NCBI RefSeq assembly: GCF_964355755.1
Contig: NC_092672.1
Span: 37,206,437-37,270,436 of the forward strand
Direction: 5' to 3'
Source of the DNA: Antedon mediterranea
Taxonomy: Eukaryota; Animalia; Echinodermata
DNA: 64,000 nucleotides
Part shown: positions 18,445-45,090 of the stretch, in pieces
How the letters are laid out: each line of letters starts with the position of its first letter
How positions within the stretch are numbered: position 1 is the stretch's first letter
The notes under the pieces: model-generated
Database searches by the model: none
What the model was told of the DNA's origin: nothing
The model's input: only the letters and a program-made list of their open reading frames with translations
Position numbers and translations under genes: made by a program

Positions 18445-18481
18445 GCAGAGCTTTCGGGCAACACTAGCCCTTCATTAGTGC
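18445..18481 (-). ncRNA. Hammerhead family C, core-mutated (CTAATGA)
   Basis: Same motif with G-to-A in the CUGANGA box. Confidence 0.6.
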
Positions 18482-18922: not shown

Positions 18923-19280
18923 TGAGTGAGTGGCCGAGCGGTTAAGACAGTGGAACCGTAATTACGTAGCCATAACATCGGCAGGGGTTCGAGGCTCACT
19001 CGCTCCATGGTTCTGGTTGTAAAACGAGTCTTCTCGGATAAGGATCTAAACCGTAGGTCCAGTGTACACATCTAGCTCGTGTGCACTTTAAAGAACCTAG
19101 TACATCTTTTGAGACGAGTAGGGGGTTACCCCGGTGTATTAGTATATCACAGCCACTGATCAGGGAGTTGTTATTACAACTAACTAATAACAACTCCCCG
19201 CACTGATCACCAACTGGGCCCTCTGGGAGACCAGTCTTTGACTGAAGAGGTTACCCAGTATAAATATAAATTTCAATCAA
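18923..19280 (+). mobile_element. tRNA-derived SINE with Deu/Nin-like core (tail type B)
   Basis: A box tggccgagcggt, B box ggttcgaggc, same core, different 3' tail. Confidence 0.75.
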
Positions 19281-19750
19281 TTAACCCTACTCACATCAGT
19301 TAACATTGTCTTCAAATACATGTTGAAACCAACAAACTTCTTATTGTTTACGATAAAAAAATATATTATAGTAATTTCGATAAACAGTATAATAATATTT
19401 ATAAAACTATTACAAACATTAATTCAATCTGGCCTATACGTGACCTTAAATAAACTGGAAACATTGTATGTAAATGTTGCTTAATGCAGTTACGTTCAAA
19501 CAGCAAAATACCGGAATGTGCAAAATGAACTTTCGAAAAATGAACTATCATAAACATGTTTCTGCTGAGCGTATATACACCTCACCTCACATAACATCTC
19601 TGTGACATCACTGGAGTTTAGATAGGTATATTATTACAGTAGGCCTACTGTAGATAATGCGCGCGCGCGCGAAGTGTGTGCTAGCATGGTGGCAATTTCA
19701 GCCAAAATCTAGACACAGCTTATAAACGTGCCGATTTGATTCAGCATAAT

Positions 19751-19949
19751 TCAACTTTCAACAGATTCACTTTGATGTCGTTTTTTAACCATCTGATCAC
19801 TTGTACTTGCATCGGATTCAGTAAATGTTACATACTGAGTATCTACAAATGCAAGCTTTTGGAGCATAAGGTCAAAGGTCGAATACAACTCAGCAAATGT
19901 TGGTCTTTGGGATGGAAAGGCTTTCCAGCATTTCGTCATCACTTCGTAC
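19751..19949 (-). pseudogene. Duplicated last coding exon of the RTK (orphan or alternative last exon)
   Basis: [26 protein letters not shown]...; two aa differences from 29542-29740; acceptor intact; no upstream kinase exons in this copy. Confidence 0.8.
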
Positions 19950-20140
19950 CTGTAAAAGAGGTTTCATTTTTTAGGCTCATAAGTTATTAGTTGATTCAGC
20001 TATAAATGAATGAAAAACCGAAAATGCATAAGCTATGTACTTGGTGATTAACCCAACCCCACCCCGTTTTTCGGCCAAACAACATTTTTTTTTTAGTTCG
20101 TTTAAAGTTTTCGCAAAAGTAAGAAGTGTTTTCAATTAAA

Positions 20141-22221: not shown

Positions 22222-24218
22222 ATTGTGTAGGCCTACAGATTATATTTAGTTAATTAGTGTTAATTTTGTAATTGTTTTGATAAACGACTAACAATGTCGA
22301 GTCGATAAAAAAATGGTAATAAACGTTAAATCAATATATATTTAAATTGTGTCATGTGAAATATGTTGATTGCTTTTTTTGTAAAAATAATGTAGATTAC
22401 ATCTGTACTGTATTTCGTAAACGTACTGATAGCAATTGGATAATAACGTTTCTGATTAAATGGAATGTTTAGTTCTGATGAGATGGGAAAACCAGGATGA
22501 AAACTGTATACACAGCAGAGCTTTTTCCTTGCAATGTACCAAGGACTACTAGTAAAAATCACAATAAAAATAATTATTATTAGCATTACTTACCTGAAAA
22601 ATTGTATAAATAAAAAAATGAGTGTTTTTTGAAACAATATTCATAAGGTATAATATTATAAAGTTTACTTTAATGTATGTGCAATATTTATATACAGTAC
22701 TATAAAAAGATTGTTTGTGTGCTGTCTTATATTAACAACTTATTCTATAATATTATTATATTATATAATAATGAATTTTGTATATACAATATTGAATGAA
22801 TAAAGATTGAAGGAATAAAGATGGGAGAGACCCATAAAAGATTAAAAAAAATAAATAAAAATAATTATTCAATTGTACGAAAATAAACTAATAAGTAGTA
22901 CGCATACTGTAAAGCCCAACATTTTCGCGGCCCTAAATTTTCGCGATTTTACGTTTTTAACTATTTCGCGACCTTTTGTTTTTGCGATTTCCGTTTATTG
23001 TGTAACTTAAAAAAATGATTCGTCCTTTTTAAGAATGTAAAGACTATGTAGTTCTTAGAAGTATTTTGAAATGTTTGTATTGTAATTAGCAATACAATAA
23101 GGTTAATGAACTGTTATCTAAATAGAGTAGGTATTACCAGAACGTGATATTGTTGCGGTGGTTGTTTTCGGAAAAAATACGGATTTCATCATTGTTCGTA
23201 AATCGAAACTGGCATGTATTGTTATGTGTGTCAGCTTCCATACAGACAACAATACAATAATGGGTAGCTTTAAACAATCAACTCAAGCAAAAGTTTGGAT
23301 AATGGTCGGTTAAACGTGACTCCTTTGCGCGTGTACGTCGCTACATTACGCAGCGGGAACCAATCAAATCAAAGTACCTACGGTTGCAAAAAGCTTAGAG
23401 TACGTTTCATCTGACATTTTACAGCGGTTTGTAGGAAGTAAAATGAAAGAGGAACATAAATTATAGAAAATATTTATTGTGTCATGACAGGAAATCTTCA
23501 TGGTATTTATAGAGACAAAACTTGTTTGTTTTGATGTAATAAAGGTGGTTTAGCTAGACGCTAGACTATAGATCAATCTATTTTAAACCTTCTATTGCCA
23601 TTTTGTTTGTTAATGTTATGTTGCATTTTGGCAATATAGTTGAAAGTACAGTAGAGTTTATTAAACAAAATAAACACCAGACTGCATAAATAGAATACTT
23701 TTTGAACAAGCCTATAGTCTGTTGTACTTCCGATATACTGATATGAGGACTGGCGGTAATGAAAACAATAATACCCACATATGTCTATTTTAAGAAACTC
23801 TCGAAAATCATTATTATCATTTAAATAATTTATTTAAATTTTCATAATTTAAAAACCATATTTTTTAGAAATTAACATTTCAAAATGCTAACTGTAAGCC
23901 TAATATGAAAAAGCAATTTATAGAATTAACTATTCAAAACATTAAAGCTCTTGGAAATCTAGACCGGATAAAATGTATTTCTATTTTTATTTTGCTTACA
24001 TTGACACACCGGAATACATAAACATAATAAACTTGAGAGTAAACATCTAGGCCTAAAACATGTGAATCGGCACCCAGTTAATATTGTCATTGGCAATCTT
24101 GGTAGGTAATTAAAGTAAAGCAATCAATCAATAAATTTACCGAGTTTCTCATGCAAATTCATAAGTACTAAATTACAATAATTTGATTAAACAAGAGAGT
24201 CATGATCCAACAACGCAA

Positions 24219-24500
24219 AGTGAGTGAAGGCCAAGCGGTTAAGACAGTGGAACCGTAATAACTTAGCCTATTAACAGCAAGGATTCGAGCCTCACTCGCT
24301 CCATGGTCCTGGTGGTAGAACCAGTTTTCTCGGATAAGGACTATAAACCGTAGGTCCAGTGTACACATCTAGCTCATGTGCACTTTAAAGAACCTAGTAC
24401 ATCTTTCGAGACGACTAGGGAGTTACCCCGGTGAACTAGTACACATCCACACTGGCATAACTGATACGCTGTTTAGGGACACCCTCTGTAAATAAGGTGA
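24219..24500 (+). mobile_element. tRNA-derived SINE (tail type A, duplicate of 13135)
   Basis: Homologous to 13135-13450. Confidence 0.75.
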
Positions 24501-24654
24501 AAAAAAAATAAATAAAAAAAAACAAAAATAAATTAAATAAAAAAAGCTTGTGAACTAAAACGAAAAACAGGACAACACGTGACCAGAAACCAGAAAATCA
24601 AATGCAATGGAGTTTCAGAATAAATAACAAATAATAAATCATAAAAATAACTAA

Positions 24655-25477
24655 GGGCCTGTTTCTGCTGCAACTGCTCAAAATACGGTATAAAAATACG
24701 GTATAAAATACGGTATTTTTTATACCGTATTTTTTAGTACCCCGTTTCTGCTAACAATACTTCTTGGGTGGTCGTGTTAAATTTCATCTTTTTTACCCAA
24801 ATTGCCATTCATTTATTTGATCGATAATTAAAAGTTGAAATAAAGGAAGTTTTACGTCTCACTTTCAACAGCCTAGCCCTAGTGATAGAGATGTTGTGAG
24901 AGCACAGAAAACATCGTAATGGGGACAATTAATTCGTTCCCTCCCCGAGTTATTGTATTTTGCAATGTTGTACTGCTTTCGCAGGCTCTTCAGCTTTGAG
25001 TTTACTTGCTTTGGAGACAAGTTTATTCCATACTCCTGCTTTATTTTTTTAGAAATGTCTTTATAAATGTGGTTGTCCCTTTTATTACCTTTTAGTTGGT
25101 CAGACATTTTAGCTTCCCCACACACATTTATTTAGTAAAACTGTGACGTATTCGCTCCACATTTTCGCCGAATATATCTATACATGTGTGTAAAGCAGCT
25201 AACAGCGACAGAAAATAAAAACACGAATGGTGACCTTTTGTCATGTAAAAAAAAAATACGGTATTTTTTATTGGCAGCAGAAACGGGTACAAAAAATACG
25301 GTATAAATTTGTAAATACCGTATTTTATCCACAAATTTTGTGGGGAAAATACGGTATACAAAATACGGTATATTTTTTATGAGCGCAGTTTCTGCTGCCA
25401 AAAATATACCGTATATATACGGTATTCAAAAAATACCGTATAATATACGGTGTTTAGTTGGCAGCAGAAACAGGGCC
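24655..25477 (-). mobile_element. PIF/Harbinger derivative with Myb/SANT-like ORF remnant
   Basis: TIRs gggcctgtttctgctgc/gcagcagaaacagggcc, TAA TSD confirmed by the empty site at ~13615, subterminal aatacggta repeats, ORF 24865-25125 (IYKDISKKI...SPKQVNSKLKSLRKQY) of trihelix/Myb type. Confidence 0.88.
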
Positions 25478-26596
25478 TAATTTATATATAATCGGTGTGA
25501 GTAAACATCCTGAAATTGAAGACAACATTTTCCCTGAATTTTGGTTATTGATATTTATAAATAAAACATTAGGTTACATGAGTAGAAAAACAGGATGTGA
25601 ATGAAAATAGGTTCGTAGGCCTGTATTGCTACTAATAGTTCTGTAGGGATTTGTTTCATTTTCTTTCTCGTACTAAAATCTATTCATACAATGTCAATCA
25701 ATCAAAATCAATCAATAATAACATAACCCATTTTCTTTTCTCTTTCAACAAAATAACAATTTAAATATAAATAATAAAGAGGCAAACCCCGGGAAGAACA
25801 TAATTTGGTCTCCCTCCAAAAAAAAACGTGTGGCGGGTTAAGAAAAAAACAAGTTGTAATCATCCTGTATAAAATCACTTACTTATCCTACAAGACTAAA
25901 GAAGACTAAATACATTCGCCAATTTGGTTCAGCAAATTACACAAGAAACTCAAATCGCGAAAATAAAAGGTCGCGAAATAGTTGAAAATGTAAAATCGTG
26001 AAAATTTAGGGCCGCGAAAATGTTGGGCTTTACAGCATTCATTTTCATCCAAACATAATTATAAACAACAAGAAGATAGTGATTTATTTTTATTTCAAGC
26101 AATATCATAAATTACATTGAAAATACAAAAAAAACGTGGAAATGTTGAACAATTAACATTAAAGAAAGCATTGCGGTAAACATTAGCAATATTATATTAA
26201 AAAATAAACTATATTAATAACCGATTATCTTAAAAATACTTTATCATGATCCATAATTCACATGAGACTCACATGTGACGCTATATCACGGAATCGACTA
26301 TAATATTGTTTGTAGATACATTACTTTTGTACTGAAAGGGAATGTAGTAGTCTTTTGGCATTTTAAGTACATTTAATTACATGGGACATTTATTAAAGGT
26401 GTATTACGTCACTGAATACGTCACGGTTTTTAGTTCAAAATTGTAAGTGAATATTATAATAAATCCAAAGGCAAATTACTGAAAATAATGACAATGCTGT
26501 ACTGGGTATCATTAGCTGGATCTCAATAAAGATACAAAATGAATAAAGCAAAAAGCTCAATCAAAACGATAAAGTAAAACATATAGAAAAAGTAGC

Positions 26597-26627
<31 letters not shown>

Positions 26628-26728
26628 ACGCGCGTGCGTACAACTGAGGACTAGTGCTGTTCCGCCGTACCACGCCGAGAATGTTAAAGAGTCGTTATCC
26701 GATCGAGTTAAAGAACAATACCATGAAA

Positions 26729-26800
26729 GCCCCAGTGGTCTAATGGTTAGGGCAACTGCATATCAAGCAGACGGTCCGAGTTCGAGTCTCGGTTGGGGCG
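26729..26800 (+). tRNA. Duplicate tRNA-like (ATC anticodon) sequence
   Basis: Identical to 14908-14979. Confidence 0.55.
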
Positions 26801-26908
26801 ACTTTTTCTCATTCTCACAGATTTCCTCATCTTTATCGTTTCAAAAATTAATTAAATAATTTTCAGTGTATCACCAAGCGGTTTGGAATTTATTTCTATG
26901 CCTGTTGT

Positions 26909-26942
<34 letters not shown>

Positions 26943-27067
26943 CCAAAGGCAAATTACTGAAAAAAATGACAATGCTGTGGGTTTCAGTGGCTGGATCTCA
27001 ATGGAGATACAAAAATAAAAAGCGAAAAGCTAAATCAAAACGATAAAGTAAACAGCCAGAAAAGTTA

Positions 27068-27104
27068 GCAGAGCTTTCGGGCAACACTAGCCCTTCCTCA
27101 GTGC
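27068..27104 (-). ncRNA. Minimal hammerhead ribozyme, family C (CTGAGGA variant)
   Basis: Core still matches CUGANGA...GAAA. Confidence 0.75.
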
Positions 27105-27165
27105 AAGTGTTTATATATAAAAATCAAGATCAAATAAGTTAAAACTGCCTCAATATAGATTTATT

Positions 27166-27204
27166 TTAACGACATGTTTCGGGCATAGCCCATCATCAGG
27201 TGAA
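27166..27204 (-). ncRNA. Minimal hammerhead ribozyme, family B
   Basis: Intact core on the minus strand. Confidence 0.78.
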
Positions 27205-27709
27205 AAGAATTGTAACAAAGGATAACATATATAAGTCACAAAATGAAATTTAAAACAAAGAAAAAAGCTTCAAGTGTAAATAATTGTTAATATGTGAATG
27301 TCTCTGGCAAAATTAATGTTTAAAGGATCTAAATTGTACATTTATGCCGGTAGGGGCAAGAGTGCCAAGCTTTACAATTATTCTTTCTTCTATAATTCTA
27401 CGAGATGTCTCAGAACCATTACATACTTTAACACCAGAAATTGTAATATCCGAAAGGGAATGCTCATTATTACAAAAATGGGTGGCTACAGGCCGGGACA
27501 TTCACATATTAACAATTATTTACACTTGAAGCTTTTGTCTTTGTTTTAAATTTCCTGCTTTATAAGCAACCATTCCTGCTTTGTACACCATAGCGTTTGG
27601 AAGCGTGCCTTTATAACTATGCCTTTTGTTTGTTAACATCTTTGATTGGCTGATTTGTTTTATTATGTAATTTTGTGACTTATATGTGTTATCCATTGTT
27701 ACAATTCTT

Positions 27710-27748
27710 TTCACCTGATGATGGGCTATGCCCGAAACATGTCGTTAA
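27710..27748 (+). ncRNA. Minimal hammerhead ribozyme, family B
   Basis: Intact core cctgatgatgggctatgcccgaaacatgtcg. Confidence 0.78.
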
Positions 27749-27953
27749 AATAAATCTATATTGAGGCAGTTTTAACTTATTTGATCTTGATTTTTTTCTA
27801 TATCCTGCCTATGCAGCTCTTTGATTTATATATATATATATAAATTGCAGATCCAAATAGTTTATCTAAAACAATAGGCTATTGTATACGACTTCCTGAT
27901 GACTCACTTCTATTAAGCACTATGAGACAACTGTGTCACTTATGTTTTATATT

Positions 27954-28009
27954 TCACCTGAAGAGTGCGGCCAGCTACATGCTGGTCGTACGAAACAAAT
28001 TTGTAGTGA
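27954..28009 (+). ncRNA. Type I hammerhead ribozyme, family A
   Basis: Identical motif; the paralogous copy at ~18314 is deleted after CTGAAGAG. Confidence 0.85.
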
Positions 28010-28044
28010 TTAAAACAATGAAGTAACCAAGTTTTCTGCTGTTA

Positions 28045-28119
<75 letters not shown>

Positions 28120-28294
28120 TCTCAGTAATTTGCCTTTAGATTTATATATATATATATATATATATAAATCTAAAGGCAAATTACTGAGAAAAATGACAAT
28201 GCTGTGGGTATCAGTGGCTGGATCTCAATGGAGATACAAAAATAAAAAGCGAAAAGCTAAATCAAAACGATAAAGTAAACAGCCAGAAAAGTTA

Positions 28295-28331
28295 GCAGAG
28301 CTTTCGGGCATCACTAGCCCTTCATCAGTGC
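28295..28331 (-). ncRNA. Minimal hammerhead ribozyme, family C
   Basis: gca-CTGATGA-agggctagtgatgccc-GAAA-gc-TC-tgc. Confidence 0.78.
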
Positions 28332-28771
28332 AAGTGAAGGAATTTGGATAACGTCATAGTATAAAGCTGGCAAGTGCTGCCTGGGTGGACATGAATAAAA
28401 GAAATATAACAAAGGGAGCCAGGGTGGAGTCTGAATAAGAGTGGAAAACAAAGAAGGTAGCTTGGTAGAGATATAAACAATTTATATACATATATTAATG
28501 TCCTCATCTTTATCGTTTCAAATTAATTAATTAAATTTCAGTATATCACCGGGCGGTTTAGAATTAATGTTCTTTGCCTGATTTGTTTATATATATTAAT
28601 GTTCTTATATAATTTTAAAAAAAAAGGTCATGGTCGTAGAAGAAGAATACAGAGTATCTCCTAGCACACCATTACGTAATATCTGGTAACTACACGTTTC
28701 TATTAGGAAAAGGAACAGGTGTGGAATGTTAACAATTTTTTGATTAAATCAATTTTAAAAACAACTCCCTT

Positions 28772-29120
28772 GAGTGAGTGGCCGAGCGGTTAAGACAGTG
28801 GAACCGTAATTACGTAGCCATAACATCGGCAGGGGTTCGAGGCTCACTCACTCCATGGTTCTGGTTGTAAAACGAGTCTTCTCGGATAAGGACTATAAAC
28901 CGTAGGTCCAGTGTACACATCTAGCTCGTAGAACCTAGTACATCTTTTGAGACGAGTAGGGGGTTACCCCGGTGTATTAGTATATCACAGCCACTGATCA
29001 GGGAGTTGTTATTACAACTAACTAATAACAACTCCCTGCACTGATCACCAACTGGGCCCTCTGGGAGACCAGTCTTTGACTGAAGAGGTTACCCAGTATA
29101 AATATAAATTTCAATCAATT
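28772..29120 (+). mobile_element. tRNA-derived SINE (tail type B, duplicate of 18923)
   Basis: Homologous to 18923-19280. Confidence 0.75.
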
Positions 29121-29541
29121 AACCCTACTCACATCAGTTAAAATTGTCTTCAAATACATGTTGAAACCAACAAACTTCTTATTGTTTACGATAAAAAAAT
29201 ATATTATAGTAATTTCGATAAACAGTATAATAATATTTATAAAACTATTACAAACATTAATTCAATCTGGCCTATACGTGACCTTAAATAAACTGGAAAC
29301 ATTGTATGTAAATGTTGCTTAGTGCAGTTACGTTCAAATAGCAAAATACCGGAATGTGCAAAATGAACTTTCGAAAAATGAACTATCATAACATGTTTCT
29401 GCTGAGCGTATTATACAGTTACTAGGCCTACTGTAGATAATGCGCGCGCGCGCGCGAAGTGTGTGCTAGCATGGTGACTATTTTGTATCAGCCAAAATCT
29501 AGACACAGCTTATAAACGTGCTCTTATAGATTCAGCATAAT

Positions 29542-32500
29542 TCAACTTTCAACAGATTCACTTTGATGTCGTTTTTTAACCATCTGATCACTTGTAATTG
29601 CATCAGATTCAGTAAATGTTACATACTGAGTATCTACAAATGCAAGCTGTTGGAGCATGAGGTCAAAGGTCGAATACAACTCAGCAAATGTTGGTCTTTG
29701 AGATGGAAAGGCTTTCCAGCATTTCGTCATCACTTCGTACCTGTAAAAGAGGTTTCATTGTTTAGGCTCATAAGTTATTAGTTGATTCAGCTATAAATTA
29801 ACTCCCGCTGTTTTGATTTACGTATTTCATCGTGTTATTTATAAATAAATGATTGATAAATTATCTCCGGTAATTTGAATTTAACTTTTATCGATTTCAA
29901 TCGATAATTGATCAATTCATTATTATTCGAAACATGATGATGATGTTTTTTCCACATGTGCACTGTATTGTTTACGATCATATTAATGTAATATAATGCT
30001 TTATTATTGATGCAACTTTATACTTTATTAATCAGTTAATAATGGGAAAATGACATAAACAGAGGCACGATTAAAGTGTAATGTATGTTGCGCTTGGTTA
30101 GCTGCTGTAAAGTGTGTGTGCATTTGATTTGGTAAAGCCATGAATCTGAATTAAACCACTAAAATTAAGTTACAAATATGTTAAAGTTACACAATTGCGA
30201 CAGGTCACCCGAACTCATTGGCCGTCATTGCATATTATTACCCGTATCTCATTGCGACGATGCGTGCGTAGTTGATATTAAAATACCATTTTAAATATTT
30301 TCGATTGTTGATTTGTTTATAATCTGTTTCGAATAACGCAATTAAATCTCTGGAATTCAATGAAACGTAAATTGCTGTGGGGCCTATAATGTATCTTACT
30401 TCTATGGCAATGTTTTAAGGTATTATGAACCATACGTAGGCATATTAAAAATGTAGGCCTAATGAACGACCCTCTAAAAATGTTAATGTTGACAACTTAA
30501 ACGGTGCTTGTATGGTAGCACTGCTTGTGTCATTATTAGTTGTGAAGAAACTGTACTTTCAAATGCATTAAAATTGAAATTATATCTTTCAATATCATAC
30601 ATGCCAGACCAGGTGCATAGACAGCTTTCATGTTAAAGAATGCTAAGCATTACATTTGTCATGCAAACATTGACGTCAAAACTATGTGAATGCTATGAGT
30701 TACTTTGAAAGTACAGTACATTGACATTGACGTTTTTATTATTTTTAGGGAATGACGTCATGAAGGACTTTTTTGTTTATGCCAACATATCTTCGCGCAT
30801 CCAAAACGTCGGGGTGAAAAACCGAAAATGCATAAGCTATGTGCGTACACATTTCTCCGGTGCAAAAACAAATACATAAAAATATTTCAACGTAATTATA
30901 GCTGTTTGTTCATAATAGATACACCATCGTGGTCATCCCACCATTTACTTAAAGTAAAGTAAATAAATTCTATCGTAAAAAATAAAGCACCAAAGAAGAT
31001 ACTTCATAAAGCGACATGTCTGACGTCACAGCGTCGGAAATACATCCGTTTTTACGGGGCGCGTATAAGGACATTATTTTATTAATGTACGGTATGAGCG
31101 GCCGTTATGACCAGAATAGACAACATTTACGGACTATTCTTGCGATATCGGCCGCCCATAATAATTCACAGTAGAAACACTTACACTTCGCGTGGACATT
31201 GTCTTGGCTGCGGCATACGGTACCCATCTATGAGCTTGTCAGTCAGGTCACTAAGTGAGATGTCTGGATAAGGAGGCGAGCCTAACGTAATGATTTCGTA
31301 CAATAAAACGCCGAATGACCATCTGAAAACAAAAACATTATAGGAGGATTTATTCATAAAGTTAATTTTATAGGGGCTCTCGATTCGAGTTCAATTGTAT
31401 TTTTTTTTTTACCGGCCCTCGCGTATCACACGAATAATCACAGATGAAGCCTTCGATTTAACCTAAGTTATGTAATGTAAGTCATTCACTCTATTCATCT
31501 ACACAGTTTTGTGGTTAAACTGTAGACAGACGACATAATTATTATTCTTAATTATAGTGTGGGTCCTCCATGGTCCTTGGTTGTTAGTCATGCGGCATAT
31601 GTGGCCGGAAACTACGTCCATCGTCCACCTTGGTAACCACCTTGGTAAACCAATAATATTGATTCATTGCACGCTATAATAATATGTGGTTAGGGTTATC
31701 AGCCATTGTTTCATACTGCTGATAGCCATTACTCCCACAATTGGGAATTCATGTACCCACGTAGTAGGCCTACTTAAAATCTTAAACACACATCGATGAC
31801 GTAGGCCTACACACCTTAACCAATAGTTGACCAATCACAAAGTTATAATCATTTGTTGCTTGCGATTGATCAAAATCTTGAGTTATGCGCAGGTCATTGC
31901 GTTGTATCCTAGTAAGACCTGAAATGTCGTAAAATCTCTCGATAGCTGAGTATTTAATCTAATCAACCTCGTGTCGAAATTGTTCTTTTATATATTTTTG
32001 TCGCATTGTCAGTGCCCTGAAAATTATTGTCTTAAATAAAGGTCAAATCCTACGCAACTTCCTAAATACTACTTCCGGAAATTGTCTTTCCGACCGTGAT
32101 CACTGTGATCTGATCCATCCTACATCCGCCCGCGCTTAGAAATCAAAATTTGCATTGGTATGACATCCGGGAAATATTAACCTTTAGAGGTCGGCTTTTC
32201 CACTTCATATATTATTCCTTATTATTATATTTAACAAAAAACAAAAACAAATCTTCACAGATTTATTCAAATTAAATTAGGTAGACCCCACTTTAATATT
32301 TAACCTATGGTTGACTAATTCCAATTCGAGTTTGCATTGAATTTACTGTACTATTTTTAATATTAAATATATTTTCCCAGAGTTTCTATAGACAAGTTTA
32401 TAAGCGTCTTGTGGCACGGATTTGGTACAGTACATATTTATATATTGTAAATGTGGGTATATTATATCTCCAATCAACATATTTGTTTATACAAAAAGTA

Positions 32501-35500
32501 CGTTACTGATTCTTTACTCCATGCTGAGCCAATATCAAATTTATTGAACCAAAAGAAACAAACAATTCTGACTTACACGTCACTTTGTATAGTACACAAT
32601 CCTTCTCGAATAGTTTCAAGCGAAACCCAGGCAATGGGTCGTTTTCTCTCAGGAGCAAGTCGTTTGTACCCCCGCATGTAAATATCATTAGCAAGGCCAA
32701 AATCAGACACTTTTACTGTCAAGTTCTCGCCCACTAGTATGTTTCGTGCGGCTAAATCTCCATGGTAGTACCGGGTTTTTGATAAATAATTCTGAGAAAA
32801 TAAATTAATCATTGTATTAATTAATTGGTTTTTCATGGTAAACGCAAGGTTAAATATTAAACGTAGTCGTTTTTGACAATATACATAATTATTTAATTAA
32901 AGATTAATACAATAACATCCGCTAGCAATGCAATCGTCAAAGAGACAAGCGTCGTTGTGTCAAAGTTCAATTATTGATGATGTGAAGTAAACCAAGATTG
33001 TATATAGCCAGCTTATTAGACCTCTCTGGAATTGAACCATTTTAAAGCTGGCGCGCGGACAATTCTCTTCAGTGAGCGCGGTGAATGCAGTTAGCAAAGG
33101 TTATTTAGAAGTCTCTATTATGTGGCCTAATTTGTGAATTCACTAAAGTTGACACTCTTACTCTTGACACTATTTGGTGGTCAATGTGGAAACAAGCCGA
33201 ATATTTATTATCTTCCACTGGGACGCAACGGATGACGTAAGCGCAACGCAAGTGAGTTTAACAATGACAAAGCGACAGTTCGGAAAATTCATTTTACTTC
33301 TGACTAGTCAAATTACATGCGGTGTGCTTACGTCCTTGCGTTACGTCCTAGTGGAAACTAGGCTAAAGCAATGTTTCACTGAAAGAGCACCGCCGACGTT
33401 AATGAGAACCTGTGGCCGTATTCACCAATCACACTCAAGTGATTTTAACCCTAGACACCCTGAAAAAGTTATTTTTAAACACAAATTTGCAAGAACCAAT
33501 TGTCTAAAATTCTCGTTATTCAATCAGTTTCCACGTATTTGGCAAAATACCCCTGACCCCATCAAAGACCGATTATTATTTAGCTTCAGCCAATTTAAAA
33601 ATTCTCTTCATTCAACTATTACTGAACTTTAAATTGTGCATTTCTTTGTGTAATTACAATTATTTCTTATAATTGTTGATTGCTCAATTTGTTTTTGCCT
33701 TTTTTGTTTTGAATTTTTGCTATTTATGTCATATTGTAGTTTTCATATTTTTGATCTTTTGATCTGTATTTTATATATTTTAAAGTTTTTGTGTGTCTTC
33801 AATTTTTATGTGATTTATGTATGTGGTTTGGAGTATTGGAGAGCCACTTTGATAGTGCTTGCACTGTTGGCAATCCACAGGGTACTCCATCCACACTTCG
33901 TTTGTTAATGTTGTTGTCTGTATACCTGGAAATTGAATAAATAAATTAAAAAAAATAAATAAATCTATGATAAAAGTGTTTTCCTTAGCAAGTGTCAAAT
34001 TGGGCAGAGAATACACAAGAAAAATACTGGTACTGAAACCATATATGCATTTTAGGAAATAGGATCATTTTCAGCCCCTGAGCCTAACGACTTACATACC
34101 ATTGCCTTAGCTACTTGTCTTGCTATATTATACATATCAGTTTCCTTAAGACAATAAATCGGATCGTCCACATAAATCCCATGTTCTTCAACAACCTAAA
34201 AAAGTACAAATCAATAAAGTAGTAACAGAAGTAAACATTCTTATTTATACATTTGTCATGCTCCCAGCCGATATTCTTAATATGAAAATGTATAAGAGTG
34301 AATGTTCGTAATGTTAGCAGGCATAACAAATAATGAACAATATTCATAATTTTAGAAGATAATTTGTACAGTATTAATACAAAAAGATCAATACTACATG
34401 CACTGTACGATCATGAATATAAAAGCATTATATTAAATTTATTAAAGTAATTGATAGTGTCATTCGGGATATTTAACTAATTACTCTTCGAATTTTAATT
34501 AGGTTATAAATTATAAATGAAGTTAAGATTATAAGTTAATGGAAACGAATTAACTCGAAATGTCACTAAAAACACAATAATTGACTAATTTAAATATTTG
34601 AGAAGATTTTTTTTCTTTGAAATACACACTAATAAATCTCAAACATCGAGACTCACTGAATCAAGGCTGTGAAATAAAATAGAAATAGATGATATAAATA
34701 TATCGTCGTCGTTTCATAAAATATATTTTGATAAAAATAAACTGTGACAATTATTTCACAGGAAAAGACTTACCTGTCTACACGTTCTAAGAAATCTTAG
34801 CAGGTCACCGTACTTCATTAGTTCGGTAATCAGCAAATATGGTTCTGCTATCATACAGCAGCCAATAACTGCTATTATATTCGGATGTTTTCCAATATTA
34901 AGTAATAATTTAATTTCATCGACAAAATCCTCTTTTTGTTCCTGGTTTGCTGTAACTATAAACATAAAAAAAGTTTTATAAATTTCTGCAACAAGAACAA
35001 TATGAACCATGTATCTGGGGTGTTTTGGCTTGCTACAACAAGAACAACATGAAACATGTATCTGGGTTGTTTTGGCTTGCTGCAACAAAAACAATATGAA
35101 CCATGTATCTGGGTTGTTTTGGCTTGCTGCAACAAGAACAACATGAACCATGTATCTGGGTTGTTTTGGCTTGCTGCAACAAGAACAACATGAAACATGT
35201 ATCTGGGTTGTTTTGGCTTGCTGCAACAAGAACAACAACATGAAACATGTATCTGGGTTGTTTTGGCTTGCTGCAACAAGAACAACAACATGAAACATGT
35301 ATCTGGGTTGTTTTTGCTTGCTACAACAAGAACAACATGAAACATGTATCTGGGTTGTTTTGGCTTGCTGCAACAAAAACAACATGAAACATGTATCTGG
35401 GTTGTTTTGGCTTGCTGCAACAAAAACAACATGAAACATGTATCTGGGTTGTTTTGGCTTGCTGCAACAAGAACAACATGAAACATGTATCTGGGTTGTT

Positions 35501-38500
35501 TTGGCTTGCTGCAACACGAACAATATGAACCATGTATCTGGGTTGTTTTGGCTTGCTGCAACAAGAACAACATGAAACATGTATCTGGGTTGTTTTGGCT
35601 TGCTGCAACAAAAACAACATGAAACATGCATCTGGGTTGTTTTGGCTTGCTGCAACAAAAACAACATAAAACATGTATCTGGGTTGTTTTGGCTTGCTGC
35701 AACAAGAACAACATGAAACATGTATCTGGGTTGTTTTGGCTTGCTGCAACAAGAACAACATAAAACATGTATCTGGGTTGTTTTGGCTTGCTGCAACAAA
35801 AACAACAACATGAAACATGTATCTGGCTTGTTTTGGCTTGCTGCAACAAAAACAACATGAAACATGTATCTGGGTTGTTTTGGCTTGCTGCAACAAAAAC
35901 AACATAAAACATGTATCTGGGGTGTTTTGGCTTGCTGCAACAAAAACAACATGAAACATGTATCTGGGTTGTTTTGGCTTGCTGCAACAAGAACAACATG
36001 AACCATGTATCTGGGTTGTTTTGGCTTGCTGCAACAAGAACAACATGAAACATGTATCTGGGTTGTTTTGGCTTGCTACAACAAGAACAATATGAACCAT
36101 GTATCTGGGTTGTTTTGGCTTGCTGCAACACGAACAATATGAAACATGTATCTGGGTTGTTTTGGCTTGCTACAACAAGAACAACATGAAACATGTATCT
36201 GGGTTGTTTTGGCTTGCTGCAACAAGAACAACATGAAACATGTATCTGAGTTGTTTTGGCTTGCTGCAACACGAACAATATGAACCATGTATCTGGGTTG
36301 TTTTGGCTTGCTGCAACAAGAACAACATGAAACATGTATCTGGGTTGTTTTGGCTTGCTGCAACAAGAACAACATGAAACATGTATCTGAGTTGTTTTGG
36401 CTTGCTGCAACACGAACAATATGAACCATGTATCTGGGTTGTTTTGGCTTGCTGCAACAAGAACAATATGAACCATGTATCTGGGTTGTTTTGGCTTGCT
36501 GTAACAAGAAAACATGAAACATGTATCTGGGTTGTTTTGGCTTGCTGCAACAAGAACAACATGAAACATGTATCTGGGTTGTTTTGGCTTGCTGCAACAA
36601 GAACAACATGAAACATGTATCTGAGTTGTTTTGGCTTGCTGCAACACGAACAATATGAACCATGTATCTGGGTTGTTTTGGCTTGCTGCAACAAGAACAA
36701 TATGAACCATGTATCTGGGTTGTTTTGGCTTGCTGTAACAAGAAAACATGAAACATGTATCTGGGTTGTTTTGGCTTGCTGCAACAAGAACAACATGAAA
36801 CATGTATCTGGGTTGTTTTGGCTTGCTGCAACAAGGACAACATGAAACATGTATCTGGGTTGTTTTGGCTTGCTGCAACACGAACAATATGAACCATGTA
36901 TCTGGGTTGTTTTGGCTTGCTGCAACACGAACAATATGAACCATGTATCTGGGTTGTTTTGGCTTGCTGCAACAAAAACAACATGAAACATGTATCTGGG
37001 TTGTTTTGGCTTGCTGCAACAAGAACAACATGAAACATGTATCTGGGGTATTTTGGCTTGCTGCAACAAAAGCAACATGAAACATGTATCTGGGTTGTTT
37101 TGGCTTGCTGCAAAAAAAACAACATGAACCATGAATCTGGTTTTTTGGCTTGCTGCAGCAAGGACAACAAACATGACATTGTATATAGCTTGCTAAACTA
37201 ATAAAAGTTTTATGTAATGAAATACAATGACTGAATAATGTAAACGCGTTTATAATGTAGTGTGTAACGCGTTTGTGATGTAGTATGTAATAGTACAAAG
37301 GTAAATGTTGAATCTTTTGTCGTTCTAAAAAGGTTAATTAGGGCGTTAAATTACAGACATCTTTATACCGAAAGTTAAAAATGTTTGAAGAAGATTAAAT
37401 GAATGTACATCATCATACTCTCAAATGTTACAATTTTTTCTAGTTTAAAGCAACGAGGTGAGGAATATTTGGTAACCTACCGCCAACGCTTTTGACTGCA
37501 ACCTGAACGAGATTGTCTTTTGATAAACGCAGAATGCCTTTGTGTACGACACCAAACTTTCCATGGCCTAACCTTTCCCCAATCTGCAAACATCTTCGAT
37601 TGATTTCGTGTTCTTTGTAGCTATGGTCTCGAACTGGCAAAGATATAATTCGCCGATCTGCTACTTTTGGAGGCTTCTCTGTTTAAAAAAAAGATTGATT
37701 GATTGAAATCTTTGTCACAAAATGTTTTTATATATTTATTTTCCCAACCAACAGTAAACTCAATGTTCAGTATTTACAGGAGGGAGAATAAAAAATTATC
37801 TTAAAAATGTATTGTCTCCCTGAAAAAATAATCCTTAACAAAAATGTTTTTGAATATGCCATTTTAATGTAGCATAATAGTTATCCACTTTGACCAAAAA
37901 TTGGATCGAAAAAAATGTATTTACCTGAAAAAAACTGTAATTTAAAGCAAAAAATGGGCAAAATAACATATTCAAAGTCTGATTTAATTAGGCCTAATCT
38001 TCATTTTTCATGTTTTTTGGGGGACAATACATCTTTAAGATAAAAGAAACTTCATTAAATCAGAGAATACTCTCGAACATTACATAAAACATACCGCTCA
38101 TTCGATTACAAAAAAAAACAACCAAAATCCAATATCTGTGTCGATGTTTCCATAAATGAACAGTTTCTTAAAATACTCTTACGTAACCCATCTCTATCTC
38201 CTACTAGCGCATCTTTATTTAATATCATTTTAAAGACCTTTGTAGTATAGATATCAAAATTGTCGTATAATACACATTAGTGTGTGACTATTATCATGTA
38301 AGGTAAGGTTACCAGATATTGATGAATTACATGAAATATAGCTTTCCGCACACTTCTCTATTTTTTTTTATATACATTAAACTAATGAATATTAGTAACT
38401 ACGTCAACATTATTTAAGATGATGTTTATGTTAAGCAGTATAGCCTTCACTATAAGTGGTGCATAATGTCAGTCCAATGTCCATATTATTCATGCATCAT

Positions 38501-41500
38501 AAAATCTTAGCGTTTGTATTATTTAAAGCGTTTGTATTAAATTTAACTCAAATTTGAGTACGCGACTGCAGCCATGTATATGGCCTTGTTTACAATTAAT
38601 ACGAATATTTTAAATTTTGAATATTCTCGCTTGTCTATTAATGCTATTGGTGGCGTTTTGATAATACTTTGAATGCTAAAATATATATTATAGGATATAA
38701 TACAAGGATATGATGAAGATATATTAGTCGGGTTTTTAAAAATACCAATATGAAAAGTATTGTGAACAGTTTACGAGCGGCTGATCCCTTCAACCTCATT
38801 TAATCTTTATAACCAAGTGAAGGCACGGACACCTTCTATAATATCAGCTGTCTCTTACCAATAAACTTTCCTTTGATTGAATCCATAATAGGTTTGTGAG
38901 TGACTATGACAAGTATCAGCAGAATAAACAAGCCGAGTGTTAAAAATATGTATGGCTTAATCTTGAAGTCCTTATCCTTAATGGGAATTATATTAACAGA
39001 ATCAAGTGTAGTACTATCAAGTGTAGTACTATCGGTTGTACCTGAAAATAAACAATAAACGTTCTTAAGCTCTGTCTACACTATCAAACTTTATGTTAAA
39101 AAAAAGTGATGTGCCCATAATATAGACATGATGATGTCCTATCACTACCATATTTGGGCATACCACTGCCATATTTGGGCACATCACACCCATTTTGATA
39201 GTGTAGACAGAAAAGAGAGAGAAAAAAACTTGAATTTTGCATTTGTTTTAGATTTTATCAATTATATTTTGGCCCGAAAATTTTAATTTGATAAATGACT
39301 ATCGATTGTATTGCTATACGAGGATCATAACATTACATATGCATGTACATTATTTCTGTATGTTATATGAGGACTACAATTATCAATGATTAGATATAGA
39401 TTGCAAAACAAAAATCCAAATACGCATCATGGACGGTAATCTGCGCATGTCTAATCAATCGATTTTTTGTGGAAGAGATGGACAGGGTTTGAAGACATGC
39501 GCAGATCTAACAATTTATGTCGCATTCAATTCAATTCAAAAACTTTATATATACTCGAAATATTAAAGATAACAGTAAAAAATATATACATATACAATAC
39601 AGTATATCACAATGCTTGTTCGATAGCCTTCTGTAATCGAAAATTAATCAATAATCGATGGCTATCACAAATATGAGAAAGAAAAAATTATATTTACTTT
39701 GTGTCCGCACGATGACGTTACACGCGTTACTGCTACTCGAGGCGACGCAGATCCGATCTGAACTCCTGCATTCTGAAGCCTTACATTTGCAGCTGGCTTC
39801 ATCACTTTTATCTTCACAGTCATAAACCGCGTCACACACAAACGCGCCAGCAACACACTGTCCATTATGACAATGAAACTCATTTTCCTCACATTTACAA
39901 TTAAACTCATCAGCTTCATTTGAACAATCAACCCGGCCGTTACATTTATGCGCTAGTAGGACACACTCGCCATCTCCACAGTCAAATTCAGAATCGGAGC
40001 AACTGCAGTCGTATTCATCGGTGCCATCTGTACAATCCATCGTTCCGTCGCACATCAGTCGATTGTCGACGCATTGGCCATCGTTACAGCGATATTCTCC
40101 TGTGGTACATGTGCAGTTGAATTCATCCGATGAATCAGCATGGCAATCTATTCTGCCGTTACATACAAACCGGTTGCCGATGCAGCTACCGTCTGCGCAC
40201 GTAAATTCGTTAACCGTACATCCGCAGTCAGTTTCGTCAGAGCCGTCGGGACAATTTGTACGGTGATCGCACACCCAACTTTTCTTAATACATGTTCCAT
40301 CATTGCACTTAAATTGGTTATCAAAGCATAAGCAATGTTTTTCATCACCGCCGTCAGGACATTGTTGTTGGCCATCGCATATTCTATGACCAGGGATACA
40401 CATTCCATTCGAACACTTGAAATCTTTAGAATCTTTACAACTGCAGTAATGAGCAATTTCATCAGAGAAATCTGGGCATTGACCGCTACCATCACAAACG
40501 AATTTCTCATCGATGCAGATGCCGTTATCGCACGTGAATTCCGAGTCAACGCACGGACAGTTCATTTCATCATAACTACTTTGTTCGCAGAAGACGTGTC
40601 CATCGCATTTTGCATTACCACCCATGCAAAGTCCGTTTGGGCAGCGACCGTTACCGTGACAGGAGCAATTCCGCTCGTCATTTCTGTTTAAGCAATCGTA
40701 ATGTCCATTACATAAAAATATCCGTAGTATATCAGTTCCGTTACCACACGGAATCCTACAACCCTGTTCATCTGAGCCATCCATGCATTGGTTTTTTCCA
40801 TCACATATAAAATAATTTCTTAACTTCCTACCATCACCTGGACAGGTGTAAGCATACTCGCACTCGTTCTCATCCGTACCGTCACTGCAGTCATTGATGC
40901 CGTCACAAATTTGTAATTCCTCATAACAGTTACTCTCGCTTTCGCACCTGTAATTATTCGGACATTTTGTACAATCTGTCTCGTCAGATGAATCGACGCA
41001 GTTATCATGCCCGTTGCAAACATCATTCTTTTTTATACACTCTTTACTCTTGTGACACTGAAACTCGCTTTCTGAACACGTCCCGCACAGTTGGGCCAGC
41101 GTACCAATAACAGGCGTACAGTCCGATTCGCACGCCGCATCTATGGCCATGCATCTACCGTCATCGCATCGAACTTGGTCCTCGTCAAAACAGCAGTTCA
41201 ACTCGTCAGAGTTATCACTACAGTCGACTTTTTTGTCACATCGATGATCATTTGAAATACAAAATCCGTTACCACATGTAAACGCATCGACGCCACAACC
41301 ACAATTGTATTTCTTGAACTCGTCGACGCTATTAGAACAGTATGCGATATTCTGGCATACTTCCTCGCCACTAATACATACATTCTGATCTCCTTTACAA
41401 AGAAACTCGTCATCTGCACATACAACTTGGTCCGTTTTGTCACATCCGTCTGTATGACACATACCATCAGGGCACAACACAGCGTTCCCAGTACACATAC

Positions 41501-43482
41501 TGCAGTTTGACTCATCTGATCTGTCCGCACAGTTATCCACCCCGTCACATCGTAACTGGTTGGCGATACAGAAATTGTCCGTGCAGCGAAATTGATCGGA
41601 AGCACAGGGGCAGCCGATTTCGTCACTGTTATCATTACAGTCTCCTTCGCCATCGCATTTCCATAGCACTGAGATACACATAGCTGATGGAAGGCTGCAT
41701 TTAAACTCTTCTTTGGTACATTCACAGTATTTTTCGTCTGAAAAATCTTCACAATCAAAATGCATATTGCATGCTTCTTCTGGTTTAATGCACTCATTAT
41801 CATCGCACTGAAAGAACGATTTCCCACAACCTATATAAAATATGAAAAAAATATTATTTTCAAAAAGTAGTTTATTTATAACAAGCCTACAAACAGATTG
41901 TGCGATTTTAATTAATAATTATTGACTCTGTAATTTTTAAAAAATGTAAAAAAGAAACAATTACAGGCCTACTATTTTTATTCCTTAAACAAATATTCTG
42001 AATTTAAATAAATCTTGGAATCTTCCCTAATTACATTATTAGACAGTAGTCTAATTAAAACGATGGTCAATGTACTTCCACAGTCATCAGCGTTGGTGCA
42101 AATTTATATTTTTAGATAGTGTTTTTGTGGAAATTTCTATTGTTAGTTTCTTGGTAAAATCTGTTTCTATTCGTTCTGTATGTTTTGTATGAATGTAGTA
42201 TCCGATAAAGGAAATTAATGGATTTTTTTTGTTTGCGCTTTTAATCATTTCTCATTATTCTTCCTTGTCATTGAACTATAGTAATATCTATATTTTTTAA
42301 CACGAGCATATGATAACATCATTTCCAGTTATTTGAGATGGTGCACGATAAGTAGGCCTACACCGGTAATCCACGTCTGCAATGATTACCTTCCACATGA
42401 CCCAAGTAGGCCTACAAACAGGATGTTATCATGAAAAGGTGGAGTTCGAAATTTGAAAGTATTAAACAAAATAATAAACGACGGCCTCAATTGCATTTTA
42501 CACCATTACAGACAAACAAAACAGTATATGGACATCCATTTGGTTATAACAGATTCTATTTTAGGACTGCACCCCCCCCCCCCCTCCCCACGGATCTTAT
42601 GTGGCCCTGATCAGTGTTCAGAGGAAAAAAACAGGCATTAAAAAAATGTCTAAAAGCACCCGAGACCTCCAGCGTTGGTGGGCCACTTGGGGTTCCTAAG
42701 GCAGCGTTACGCCAATGCACCCACTCTCGTTTCACCGTATACCCAAGAATAATATGATTTATGGTTGCCGAAAAGATTGATGGGAAGAACAATCGAATGT
42801 GGGTTGGCGCCTAAAGGAAACGTTCTGATAGATGGATGGGTGAAGACGGGTAGATGGATGGGTGAAGAATAACGGGTAGGATGGATGGGAAATTAAATGT
42901 TCTGATGGGTGGGTAACGAAATGTAAATCATAATAATATCATAACAAGTGAAGAAAATGCTATGTACGTCCAAGGTCCAAATTATTACAGAATCTCAAAA
43001 TAGGCTATAGTTTAGATTGATTTTTTTTTATGAGTTATGTCCCAAAATGAGAACGTAATCTCTAACTGTATATATATATCTGATATATTATCTGATTTTA
43101 TGGAAGTTTATTATGATAATACTCCAGTAAGATGAAAACATTATTGGGTCTTGCTATGAAAGCATGATTAAAAAGAGACTGGGTGCAAAATGCTGCAGAT
43201 CAAACATGACGTCCAAAACATTCAAAATTTTCAATCATGTTTTAGGATCTTAATGCACCACAATAAATACATTCTTAACTTCAAACTGGTCAGCAAGTAG
43301 GCCTATTTGTTTGTGTCAACAACGACTGAACGTCGAGTTCTCTAATTCACAGACGGCGAATGTGCACGTCACTTGATACCAATACAAAACGACCTACCTG
43401 TAGAATTGCCAACTTGCTTAGTTTCCCCCGATTGAAACACATTGAATAACACAATTAATAAATATAATAAATGAACAAACAT
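29542..43482 (-). CDS. Receptor tyrosine kinase with LDL-receptor class A repeat ectodomain, ~1142 aa
   Basis: Exons 43482-43398 (signal peptide [19 protein letters not shown]), 41830-39698 (LDLa array), 39041-38859 ([20 protein letters not shown]), 37678-37481 (GHGKFG, VAVK), 34955-34774, 34195-34100, 32791-32577 ([11 protein letters not shown]), 31322-31185 ([10 protein letters not shown]), 29740-29542 (CW..RPTF); all GT-AG, phases match, total 3429 bp. Confidence 0.88.
33385..33963 (+). mobile_element. 5'-truncated LINE (CR1/L2-like) 3' end in RTK intron
   Basis: [27 protein letters not shown]...SQFKNSL resembles the CR1/L2 ORF2 C-terminus; T-rich 3' UTR and aataaa-rich tail. Confidence 0.65.
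34987..37175. repeat. 47-bp intronic minisatellite, ~46 copies
   Basis: Unit ctgcaacaagaacaacatgaaacatgtatctgggttgttttggcttg, head-to-tail with no spacers. Confidence 0.97.
39070..39211. mobile_element. MITE family 1 (TIR gctctgtctacac, TAA/TTA flanks; Harbinger-like)
   Basis: Related copies at ~51593-51700, 53975-54067 and 56931-57106, with internal cccaaatatgg repeats. Confidence 0.7.
39698..41830 (-). CDS. Single 2133-bp exon encoding ~17 complete and 2-3 degenerate LDLa repeats
   Basis: Repeated C-x-F-x-C-xxG-x-CI-xxx-CDG-xx-DC-x-D-x-SDE-xx-C; phase 1-1. Confidence 0.95.
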
Positions 43483-44009
43483 TGTACGTTTTTAGTTTGT
43501 CAAATGACAGTATAAAAGCAGTGTTCCTGTCGGCCGTGTAACTACTTCCAAACCTCATCATTCACTTTTACAATCAGCTAGCAACGACCAAGCGTAGGCC
43601 TAGCATTTAATAATGCATGTTTAGGCGGATACATGCATTATGACAATCCATAATTGATGATATTAAGAAAGGTAAATCTTGATTTTGTATTTCTTTTCTC
43701 TTCACCTCACGAGACAACTAATGTTTACAAAGATGATACATATTTAATACATACTCGACGAGACATTATTGTCTTAAAACAAAAGCACTTCTTAACCTTA
43801 TAATACTGATCGCCCGCCAGTGCAGTGGTTGATGCTTTAACTTCCTTACACCGGACTAGATACTAATCTTCTTGATCGCGTGTTAAAAGGTGAAATAACA
43901 GACTACAAGACACAACTGCTATTCATTCAGGTAGCACTATAAAAACTAAAGCCGGATAACAATTGCCGTATAAAAGTCACTTCATTAATTTGTGGTTGTA
44001 TTTTTTATG

Positions 44010-44128: not shown

Positions 44129-44507
44129 GTGTATCCTGTTGCATCTTAGATAATGATGACGACATATTTATTAATGACTTTTTCATTAACAACATGATGA
44201 TCAAGAAAACCACCTTTAATTGACATAATACATTAAAAACATTAAAACATTTATAAAATGTGCATATTGATAATCATCTTTTGATGACTAATATGTTTCG
44301 AAATTGATTCGGTGATTAAAGTGTCTTTCGTAATATGCTAATGAGCTTATTTCGTCACTTAATACGATTTTTGTCATGACATTACAGGCCTACATTAACA
44401 AGATTAGAATTTCTAATTCGTCACCTTTTCTGTAGACGTCATTTTTTTTTTAAATTTGTTTAAACATTCTTTTCAGCCTTTTCAATTTTTTTGATGAATT
44501 CATAGGA

Positions 44508-45090
44508 ATTATAGTCTGTGATTAGCTATAATTATAGTCTGTGATTAGCTAAAATTATAGTCTGTGATTAGCTATAATTATAGTCTGTGATTAGCTATAA
44601 TTATAGTCTGTGATTAGCTATAATTATAGTCTGTGATTAGCTATAATTATAGTCTGTGATTAGCTATAATTATAGTCTGTGATTAGCTATAATTATAGTC
44701 TGTGATCAGCTATAATTATAGTCTGTGATTAGCTATAATTATAGTCTGTGATTAGCTATAATTATAGTCTGTGATTAGCTATAATTATAGTCTGTGATTA
44801 GCTATAATTATAGTCTGTGATTAGCTATAATTATAGTCTGTGATTAGCTATAATAGTCTGTGATTAGCTATTATAGTCTGTGATTAGCTATTATAGTCTG
44901 TGATTAGCTATAATTATAGTCTGTGATTAGCTATAATTATAGTCTGTGATTAGCTATAATTATAGTCTGTGATTAGCTATAATAGTCTGTGATTAGCTAT
45001 TATAGTCTGTGATTAGCTATAATTATAGTCTGTGATTAGCTATAATTATAGTCTGTGATTAGCTATAATAGTCTGTGATTAGCTATAATT
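44508..45090. repeat. 23-bp minisatellite, ~25 copies
   Basis: Unit attatagtctgtgattagctata. Confidence 0.97.

Follow-up and report, generated by a model that had tools for sequence, protein, structure and literature searches.

We analysed a stretch of 64,000 nucleotides (nt) from the crinoid Antedon mediterranea (contig NC_092672.1, positions 37,206,437 to 37,270,436, forward strand; referred to as the window), and in particular a gene on its minus strand at 43482-29542. The original prediction had described this gene as a receptor tyrosine kinase (RTK) whose ectodomain is made only of about 17 LDLa repeats. Its nine exons, with AG acceptors and GT donors throughout and intron phases of 1,1,1,1,0,0,2,2, join into a single frame of 1142 amino acids (aa) with one terminal stop. 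The predicted product is identical, letter for letter, to XP_071944938.1, which surfaced in a protein search with exon 7 as query (1142 aa) and which RefSeq names 'uncharacterized protein [Antedon mediterranea]'. The nine phase-compatible exons first proposed are thus borne out. The parts of the gene are listed below, with the contig of the sequencing run X1 (described afterwards) where it bears on them.

43483 to 43700, continuing past 43700, minus strand: 5' untranslated region (UTR); the X1 contig lies on 43396-43700 (record 353-657) and overruns the end of the stretch examined
43398 to 43482, minus strand: exon 1, with the start codon, a signal peptide predicted by hydropathy, aa 1-28 and a phase-1 donor; joined to exon 2 in the X1 contig
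39698 to 41830, minus strand: exon 2, the whole LDLa array, aa 29-739, with mostly one-residue linkers, 112 Cys and between 15 modules (by Pfam) and 17 (by a purpose-built profile); highly variable
38859 to 39041, minus strand: exon 3, which encodes a Ser/Thr stalk containing a tandem unit of 15 nt and, after it, the predicted membrane span (38899-38955, aa 769-787)
37481 to 37678, minus strand: exon 4, juxtamembrane part, glycine loop and VAVK lysine, aa 801-866; 0 differences in X1
34774 to 34955, minus strand: exon 5, helix C glutamate and the first part of a short kinase insert, aa 867-927; its joint to exon 6 and one synonymous difference are seen in X1
34100 to 34195, minus strand: exon 6, kinase insert with Tyr935 and Tyr941, aa 928-959
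32577 to 32791, minus strand: exon 7, HGD catalytic loop, DFG and activation loop with Tyr997 and Tyr1001, aa 960-1030
31185 to 31322, minus strand: exon 8, kinase C-lobe, aa 1031-1076
29542 to 29740, minus strand: exon 9, kinase end, conserved tail Tyr1116 and stop
34986 to 37169, no strand assigned: 47-bp satellite in 46 copies within intron 4; its long open frames are repeat artefacts

A Pfam search of the product gave two kinds of domain and no other: LDLa, in 15 stretches (E 1.7e-109), and tyrosine kinase, at aa 831-1101 (E 1.8e-85). With a profile derived from 14 modules of the protein itself, 17 LDLa modules were recovered, two of them with only four cysteines, and 2-3 further degenerate units are visible beyond these; the predicted figure of about 17 was a fair one. 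Pfam sees LDLa alone outside the kinase, but an ectodomain of LDLa only leaves out a short Ser/Thr stalk (aa 740-757) between the array and the membrane span. The LDLa reading frame runs for 756 codons, whereas 200 base shuffles of the same 3.5 kb gave none longer than 163. Every LDLa module is contained in exon 2 (2133 nt, with phase 1 on either side), which has neither a stop nor a membrane span of its own, and the kinase exons have no alternative leader in the 64-kb window. One membrane span and a signal peptide were predicted, by hydropathy only. With this predicted signal peptide, an ectodomain, one span and a cytoplasmic kinase domain on one transcript, the product would be an RTK.

Five sequencing runs cover the stretch, and contigs of three of them (X1, X2 and X4) were aligned with it. 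None is annotated as RNA, and X1 was taken as RNA because its contig is without introns; all the transcript evidence consists of contigs of this single run. One X1 contig (3794 nt, depth 38.5) carries exons 1, 2, 3 and 4 at record 353-657, 658-2790, 2852-2962 and 2963-3160, and exons 7 and 8 at 3439-3653 and 3654-3794, with the joints 5-6, 6-7 and 7-8 at GT-AG ends. Between exons 4 and 7 the contig has 278 letters, as many as exon 5 plus exon 6 (182+96); junction 4-5 was deduced from this length arithmetic, assuming that contigs of equal length and depth are one. Junction 8-9 is found on a second X1 contig, with 30 letters on the short side, one below the detection threshold. At the two junctions that the prediction had named for checking, exons 3 and 4 directly abut (38859/37678), while exons 2 and 3 (39698/39041) lie on the same contig but with 63 other letters, in frame, standing for the first 72 nt of exon 3, the remainder of which (38859-38969) matches with 0 differences. 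Contigs of the runs X2 and X4 cross the exon-intron borders, as DNA would. Since exons 1-8 stand together, free of introns, on one X1 contig, the array and the kinase are encoded by one transcript, and the gene is real and expressed. The outcome that would have contradicted a single gene, namely LDLa and kinase exons belonging to separate genes, was not found.

When X1 was compared with the window, the differences were confined almost entirely to exon 2. There, 113 of 2133 letters differ, together with 8 gap letters that leave the length unchanged. In exon 1 with the UTR the figure is 1 of 305, and from the membrane span to the stop it is 1 of 1139, this one being synonymous (Fisher p 2e-20 against exon 2). 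The same holds for synonymous sites alone (15/178 in exon 2 vs 1/250 downstream; p 1e-5). Codons were analysed for the 40 listed differences, which gave pS (synonymous differences per site) of 0.084, pN (nonsynonymous) of 0.034 and pN/pS of 0.41; 9 of their 27 transitions are in CpG-type context. None of the 22 residue-changing codons among them falls at a Cys or at a module-ending DE pair, such sites making up 23% (P 0.003). Because the changes spare these positions, both versions of the ectodomain look folded and functional.

The divergent form of exon 2 recurs in two samples from two studies. In sample S2, 19 of the 40 listed differences are present, at about half depth where both forms align, exon 2 showing no excess of depth. 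Of the difference places, at least 33 of 37 in X4 and 36 of 46 in X2 lie within 39774-42145. A paralogue as the source of the divergent form is unlikely: in X2 and X4, exon 2 is covered no more deeply than its flanks, and the protein cluster is a singleton. Gene conversion among the modules of exon 2 was rejected as the cause of the variation, the best internal DNA match being only 31 nt at 81%. Hence, two deeply divergent ectodomain versions segregate as alleles, not paralogues, on a near-identical kinase.

A second copy of exon 9 lies downstream of the gene, within a tandem duplicate of its 3' flank (12625-20007 vs 23735-29798, mostly about 97% identical):

19751 to 19949, minus strand: second exon 9 copy, with 5 differences in 199 nt and with acceptor and frame intact, inside the tandem duplicate

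X1 also contains a second 3' UTR form at similar depth, which has four features in common with the downstream copy, yet is not identical to it. The copy may be genuine (a duplicate or an alternative last exon), or else an allele that the assembly has placed in tandem. Were the duplicate an allele, background divergence would be 1.5-2.4% (61/4063 without and 120/4972 with the most diverged block).

The catalytic residues of the kinase are intact: the glycine loop, K863, E879, HGD with D971, N976 and DFG are in place, as are the activation-loop Tyr997 and Tyr1001. All the kinase motifs named in the original prediction were found in the model. At the position of Tyr1116 in the tail, 12 of 13 aligned rows have a tyrosine, fish FGFR1 among them. 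The closest kinases belong to echinoderm receptors (54-58% identity), whose automatic names are misleading; two relatives bear names of STYK1 type, no vertebrate STYK1 being among the proteins fetched. STYK1 itself is placed by its introns near the FGFR/RET/TIE/PDGFR group in a passage of PMC4898815. The best solved matches of the kinase alone were FGFR1/3, ABL and CSF1R.

The kinase-domain phylogeny proposed with the prediction was carried out as two quick maximum-likelihood trees of 47 and 33 of the 88 kinases collected, near-duplicates being among those omitted, with the Shimodaira-Hasegawa-like approximate likelihood ratio test (SH-aLRT) as support and no bootstrap. In both, the kinase falls in a clade of HGD kinases from echinoderms, hemichordates, amphioxus and tunicates (SH-aLRT 98 in each; 35/47 and 22/33 rows), separate from a clade of FGFR-type rows. 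The ambulacrarian subset of the HGD clade received SH-aLRT of 91 and 95. In both trees the kinase sits on a long branch with no close sister. An FGFR would group with the FGFR rows and have an Ig ectodomain and an HRD loop, none of which was found. The kinase is not RET, FGFR or ALK, and its domain sequence places it in an invertebrate-deuterostome HGD clade. The HGD loop was common to 116 fetched kinases and so is not diagnostic of PVR; the trees included no named PVR. Relatives within the clade carry FN3, Ig, EGF, LRR, sushi, IgGFc-binding or YWTD ectodomains, and unplaced kinase matches of an exhaustive search add CUB and VWC. Membership of the EXTK group presumably requires grouping with named EXTK sequences together with their kinase intron code. 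The HGD clade may correspond to this group (D'Aniello et al. 2008). The EXTKs expanded independently in several lineages, according to part of a review (PMC3342872). It may be noted that another Antedon protein of the same broad kinase clade, XP_071947329.1 (P0222), has an ectodomain of YWTD propellers and EGF, the other half of the LDL-receptor kit; it clusters with crinoid Ig and FN3 receptors, apart from the LDLa-array gene.

To describe what the array could bind, its modules were scored for the lysine-binding crown (an aromatic residue and three acids) against ten LDLR-family proteins chosen by source name. A full crown was present in 1 of 17 modules (that at aa 66-102) vs 52 of 130 in the controls (Fisher p 0.006, the modules not being independent). 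Several modules have a partial crown, and in 9 of 17 the middle position of the crown is occupied by a basic residue. The low count is like that of perlecan, protease and matrix arrays, with 0-2 full crowns per protein. NPxY and YWTD are absent from the 1142-aa protein, and Pfam found no EGF in it. The best solved matches of the array were megalin/LRP2. LDLR-family modules grip ligand lysines in acidic pockets (PMC7609443, for the general mode only). Because full crowns are few and NPxY and YWTD are lacking, classical lipoprotein capture and uptake appears unlikely, and the lipoprotein-receptor-type ligand capture originally suggested is not supported by this comparison. All 19 modules scored have a net negative charge, and such modules may still bind basic partners.

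The rarity of the layout was judged from the tops of long rankings, so other LDLa-kinase proteins may exist. Among the best 120 of 1940 kinase matches, LDLa was found only in this protein, and among the best 120 of 3109 array matches a kinase was found only in this protein. No LDLa-bearing relative was found among 46 matches to exon 7. The 356 proteins fetched, including the best 150 of 109,649 from the exhaustive search, comprised 161 with LDLa, 196 with a kinase and 2 with both. The second of these is CAG7719737.1 (P0328) of the springtail Allacma fusca, an unnamed prediction of 969 aa on a 4.2-kb contig. The predicted protein has 12 LDLa modules by Pfam (13 by the profile of the Antedon modules), one hydrophobic span and a distant HGD tyrosine kinase. 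A common clade of the Antedon and springtail kinases was rejected under LG+G4 (approximately unbiased test, p 0.030) and kept under a mixture model (p 0.10). An independent, convergent origin of the springtail layout is thus likely on these kinase alignments, although not firm. In the ESM Atlas, the ectodomain search was uninformative (score 0.78), and the springtail protein matched generic kinase clusters, none of them shown with LDLa; neither result speaks for or against the layout elsewhere.

No description of an LDLa(n)-membrane span-kinase layout was found in the literature searched, outside which fall the sea-urchin kinome and RTK surveys of 2006, where it could be listed. For the crustacean 'LDL receptor' outgroup of PMC11024359, considered as a possible LDLa-kinase, the 16 of 274 motif places examined belong to megalin-type proteins with propellers; an LDLa-kinase may yet lie among the others. 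Motif matches in the supplement of PMC8662651 were only chance occurrences inside sequences. A lineage-specific chimeric receptor, with LDLa array, one span and full kinase on one transcript, is supported, with no match to a described RTK family in that literature. It is one gene in one species and not the receptor class that had been envisaged, since neither the best kinase matches nor the exon 7 matches contained a second LDLa protein. As to its uniqueness, only one other LDLa-kinase was met among the 356 proteins, but that springtail protein has the same layout. The LDLa-array RTK layout, which has transcript support, is apparently undescribed.

The proteins that best match the array come from scattered taxa, at identities of 25-42%. 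One-residue linkers reach at least 40% in 17 of 164 arrays, e.g. in brachiopod and nematode proteases and in brittle-star and acorn-worm proteins. Because such linkers are spread over scattered taxa and the identities are low, no donor of the array can be named. The relatives carry other ectodomains and all the modules lie in one phase 1-1 exon; we therefore infer that an ectodomain swap by this single exon is the simplest history. An LDLa cassette would have been inserted after the exon for the signal peptide and before that for the membrane span, in place of an FN3-type ectodomain such as the nearest relatives have. The direction of the swap was taken from the relatives' ectodomains and not from a rooted test. 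The gene would then be a clear-cut example of an ectodomain replaced through one exon, in an invertebrate kinase family that is large and little studied.

Taking these observations together, we read the product as a single-pass receptor with an LDLa array, and give a probability of about 0.5 to its being a variable recognition receptor activated by clustering on multivalent ligands. That the ligand is itself a surface that varies, as it would in immunity, in allorecognition or in the recognition of gametes, seems to us about an even bet, proposed because of the variation in exon 2 and the missing lipoprotein features. In RTKs generally, clustering of receptors leads to mutual phosphorylation of the kinases and to docking of SH2 proteins. 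Here, the LDLa modules, stabilised by disulfides and calcium, would make up an acidic rod. Receptors would be gathered by multiple weak contacts with a repetitive partner, be it a microbe, a gamete, a matrix protein or a cell surface, and their kinases would cross-phosphorylate on the predicted sites Tyr997/Tyr1001, the insert and the tail Tyr1116. SH2 proteins could then dock on the phosphorylated insert and on Tyr1116. The two deeply different ectodomain versions would be kept because the partners that they recognise differ.

A bolder form of the same idea, which we hold to be doubtful, would make the gene an animal counterpart of the polymorphic receptor kinases of plants: single-copy, with ancient alleles of the LDLa exon on a shared kinase, reading a self/non-self, gamete or pathogen code, and, together with the springtail, representing a layout invented at least twice. 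The variable outer exon on a near-fixed kinase offers a direct and cheap handle on whether echinoderms own a polymorphic recognition kinase. Should the variation prove neutral, the gene would remain an interesting but ordinary product of domain shuffling.

Several points weigh against a variable recognition receptor. The comparison is of two or three haplotypes, and one old neutral segment could look alike. The detailed codon analysis covers 40 of 132 difference rows (codons 422-739), and its pN/pS, being below 1, indicates deep divergence with no sign of positive selection. Since a contig follows a single path at each variant, the kinase may look more nearly identical than it is; the best-covering DNA run may be the window's own sample. 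If the downstream exon 9 copy is an allele, the alleles differ at 5/199 there, which is below exon 2 and well above the figure for the kinase. In the P+1 loop there is an Ala where the relatives have Lys. The HGD, non-RD state fits immunity but is common to the whole clade and to the growth-factor PVRs, and is weak evidence.

A rival reading is an ordinary growth-factor or hormone receptor, whose new ectodomain would bind one conserved basic peptide and whose exon 2 differences would be neutral drift in a loosely constrained repeat exon. We regard this as possible, if rather unlikely. The uniformly negative modules (19/19) and the pN/pS of 0.41 agree with it. Sections of PMC8286064 describe LDLa ligands as typically Lys/Arg-rich surfaces and propose that the LDLa array of GRL101 binds the basic tail of IGF; the arthropod PVRs that share the HGD motif are growth-factor receptors with 2-5 Ig domains (PMC11024359). 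Relaxed protein constraint, however, does not explain why the synonymous differences are so confined to exon 2, CpG-type context accounts for only a third of the listed transitions (9/27), and the divergent form was met in two samples of two studies. An LDL-receptor-like capture of lipoproteins or yolk-type particles, reported through the kinase, is improbable. The long array, its best solved matches to megalin/LRP2, the one full crown and the several partial ones are what it would predict, but the crown count, significantly below that of the LDLR family and like that of perlecan, protease and matrix arrays, the basic residue at the middle position of 9/17 modules, and the lack of YWTD, NPxY and EGF are not.

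The kinase might instead be a low-activity co-receptor or scaffold, the ectodomain tethering a partner and the phosphorylation being left to another kinase. This we consider still less probable. According to PMC8463890, on plant work, kinases of the non-RD type show little activity in vitro and are able to signal non-catalytically, and the long branch and the altered P+1 lysine would fit. Against it, all the catalytic residues and both activation-loop tyrosines are there, and the window and X1 have no residue difference over 1139 nt. Finally, an artefactual join (two neighbouring genes, a misassembly or a dead read-through) is very improbable. The transcript contigs are from one run, 61-63 letters at the exon 2-3 join are unaligned, LDLa repeats are known to cause assembly errors (as mentioned within PMC8286064), and no orthologue with the same layout was found among the proteins examined. 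On the other hand, a single contig runs over exons 1-8 with exact GT-AG boundaries, X2 and X4 (DNA-type runs) are continuous through the exon-intron borders, neither half of the gene has a separate end or beginning of its own in the window, and RefSeq arrived at the same model.

Elsewhere in the window, a gene at 1604-4022 (minus strand) is represented by exons that encode Kunitz domains and by four thrombospondin type 1 exons, nearly identical and spaced by about 270 bp. Broken frames resembling a long-terminal-repeat retroelement (DUF7041, retroviral-type protease) lie at 5537-6805 (plus strand), flanked by direct repeats of 1.07 kb (4261-5318 and 7036-8101). A Myb/SANT-like DNA-binding frame at 24868-25131 (minus strand) is probably derived from a DNA transposon. 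Upstream of the kinase gene there is a satellite of 23 bp x 26 (44507-45090), and at 56568-62184 (plus strand) there are exons of a Cys-loop ligand-gated ion channel, directed away from the kinase gene, with the ligand-binding and membrane domains at 61546-62184.

Among known systems, the deuterostome HGD RTKs (Patiria XP_038071438.1, Antedon XP_071965631.1, Anneissia XP_033119419.1) are the closest in the kinase, in identity (54-58%), in the motifs of the catalytic loop, activation loop, insert and tail, and in clade; their ectodomains, by contrast, are of the FN3-type, Ig, EGF, LRR, sushi, IgGFc-binding or YWTD kinds, with LDLa in none examined. The springtail protein is alike in its LDLa array, one span and HGD kinase, but its kinase is outside the deuterostome clade and its linkers are of 5-9 residues. 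ALK has one LDLa between MAM domains, a glycine-rich region and a kinase of insulin-receptor type. The Antedon product is unlike ALK/LTK, as Pfam gives only LDLa and kinase here and neither a MAM nor a glycine-rich domain; a passage of PMC8662651 names ALK as the RTK family uniquely containing LDLa. PVR, VEGFR and PDGFR also differ from it, no Ig being found by Pfam here, while the HGD loop is shared with arthropod PVR. GRL101-type LGRs, which occur in ambulacrarians, similarly carry a long LDLa array on a signalling receptor, but have LRRs, seven membrane spans and repeats usually one per exon (from parts of PMC8286064); the Antedon gene has none of these, all its repeats being in one exon. 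LDLR/LRP proteins (VLDLR, LRP1, megalin) are alike in having tandem LDLa on a type I membrane protein. Unlike them, the Antedon protein is without EGF, YWTD and NPxY, has few crowns and ends in a kinase tail, and the linkers of its array are of one residue in 12 of about 19 cases, compared with four residues in VLDLR and LRP1.

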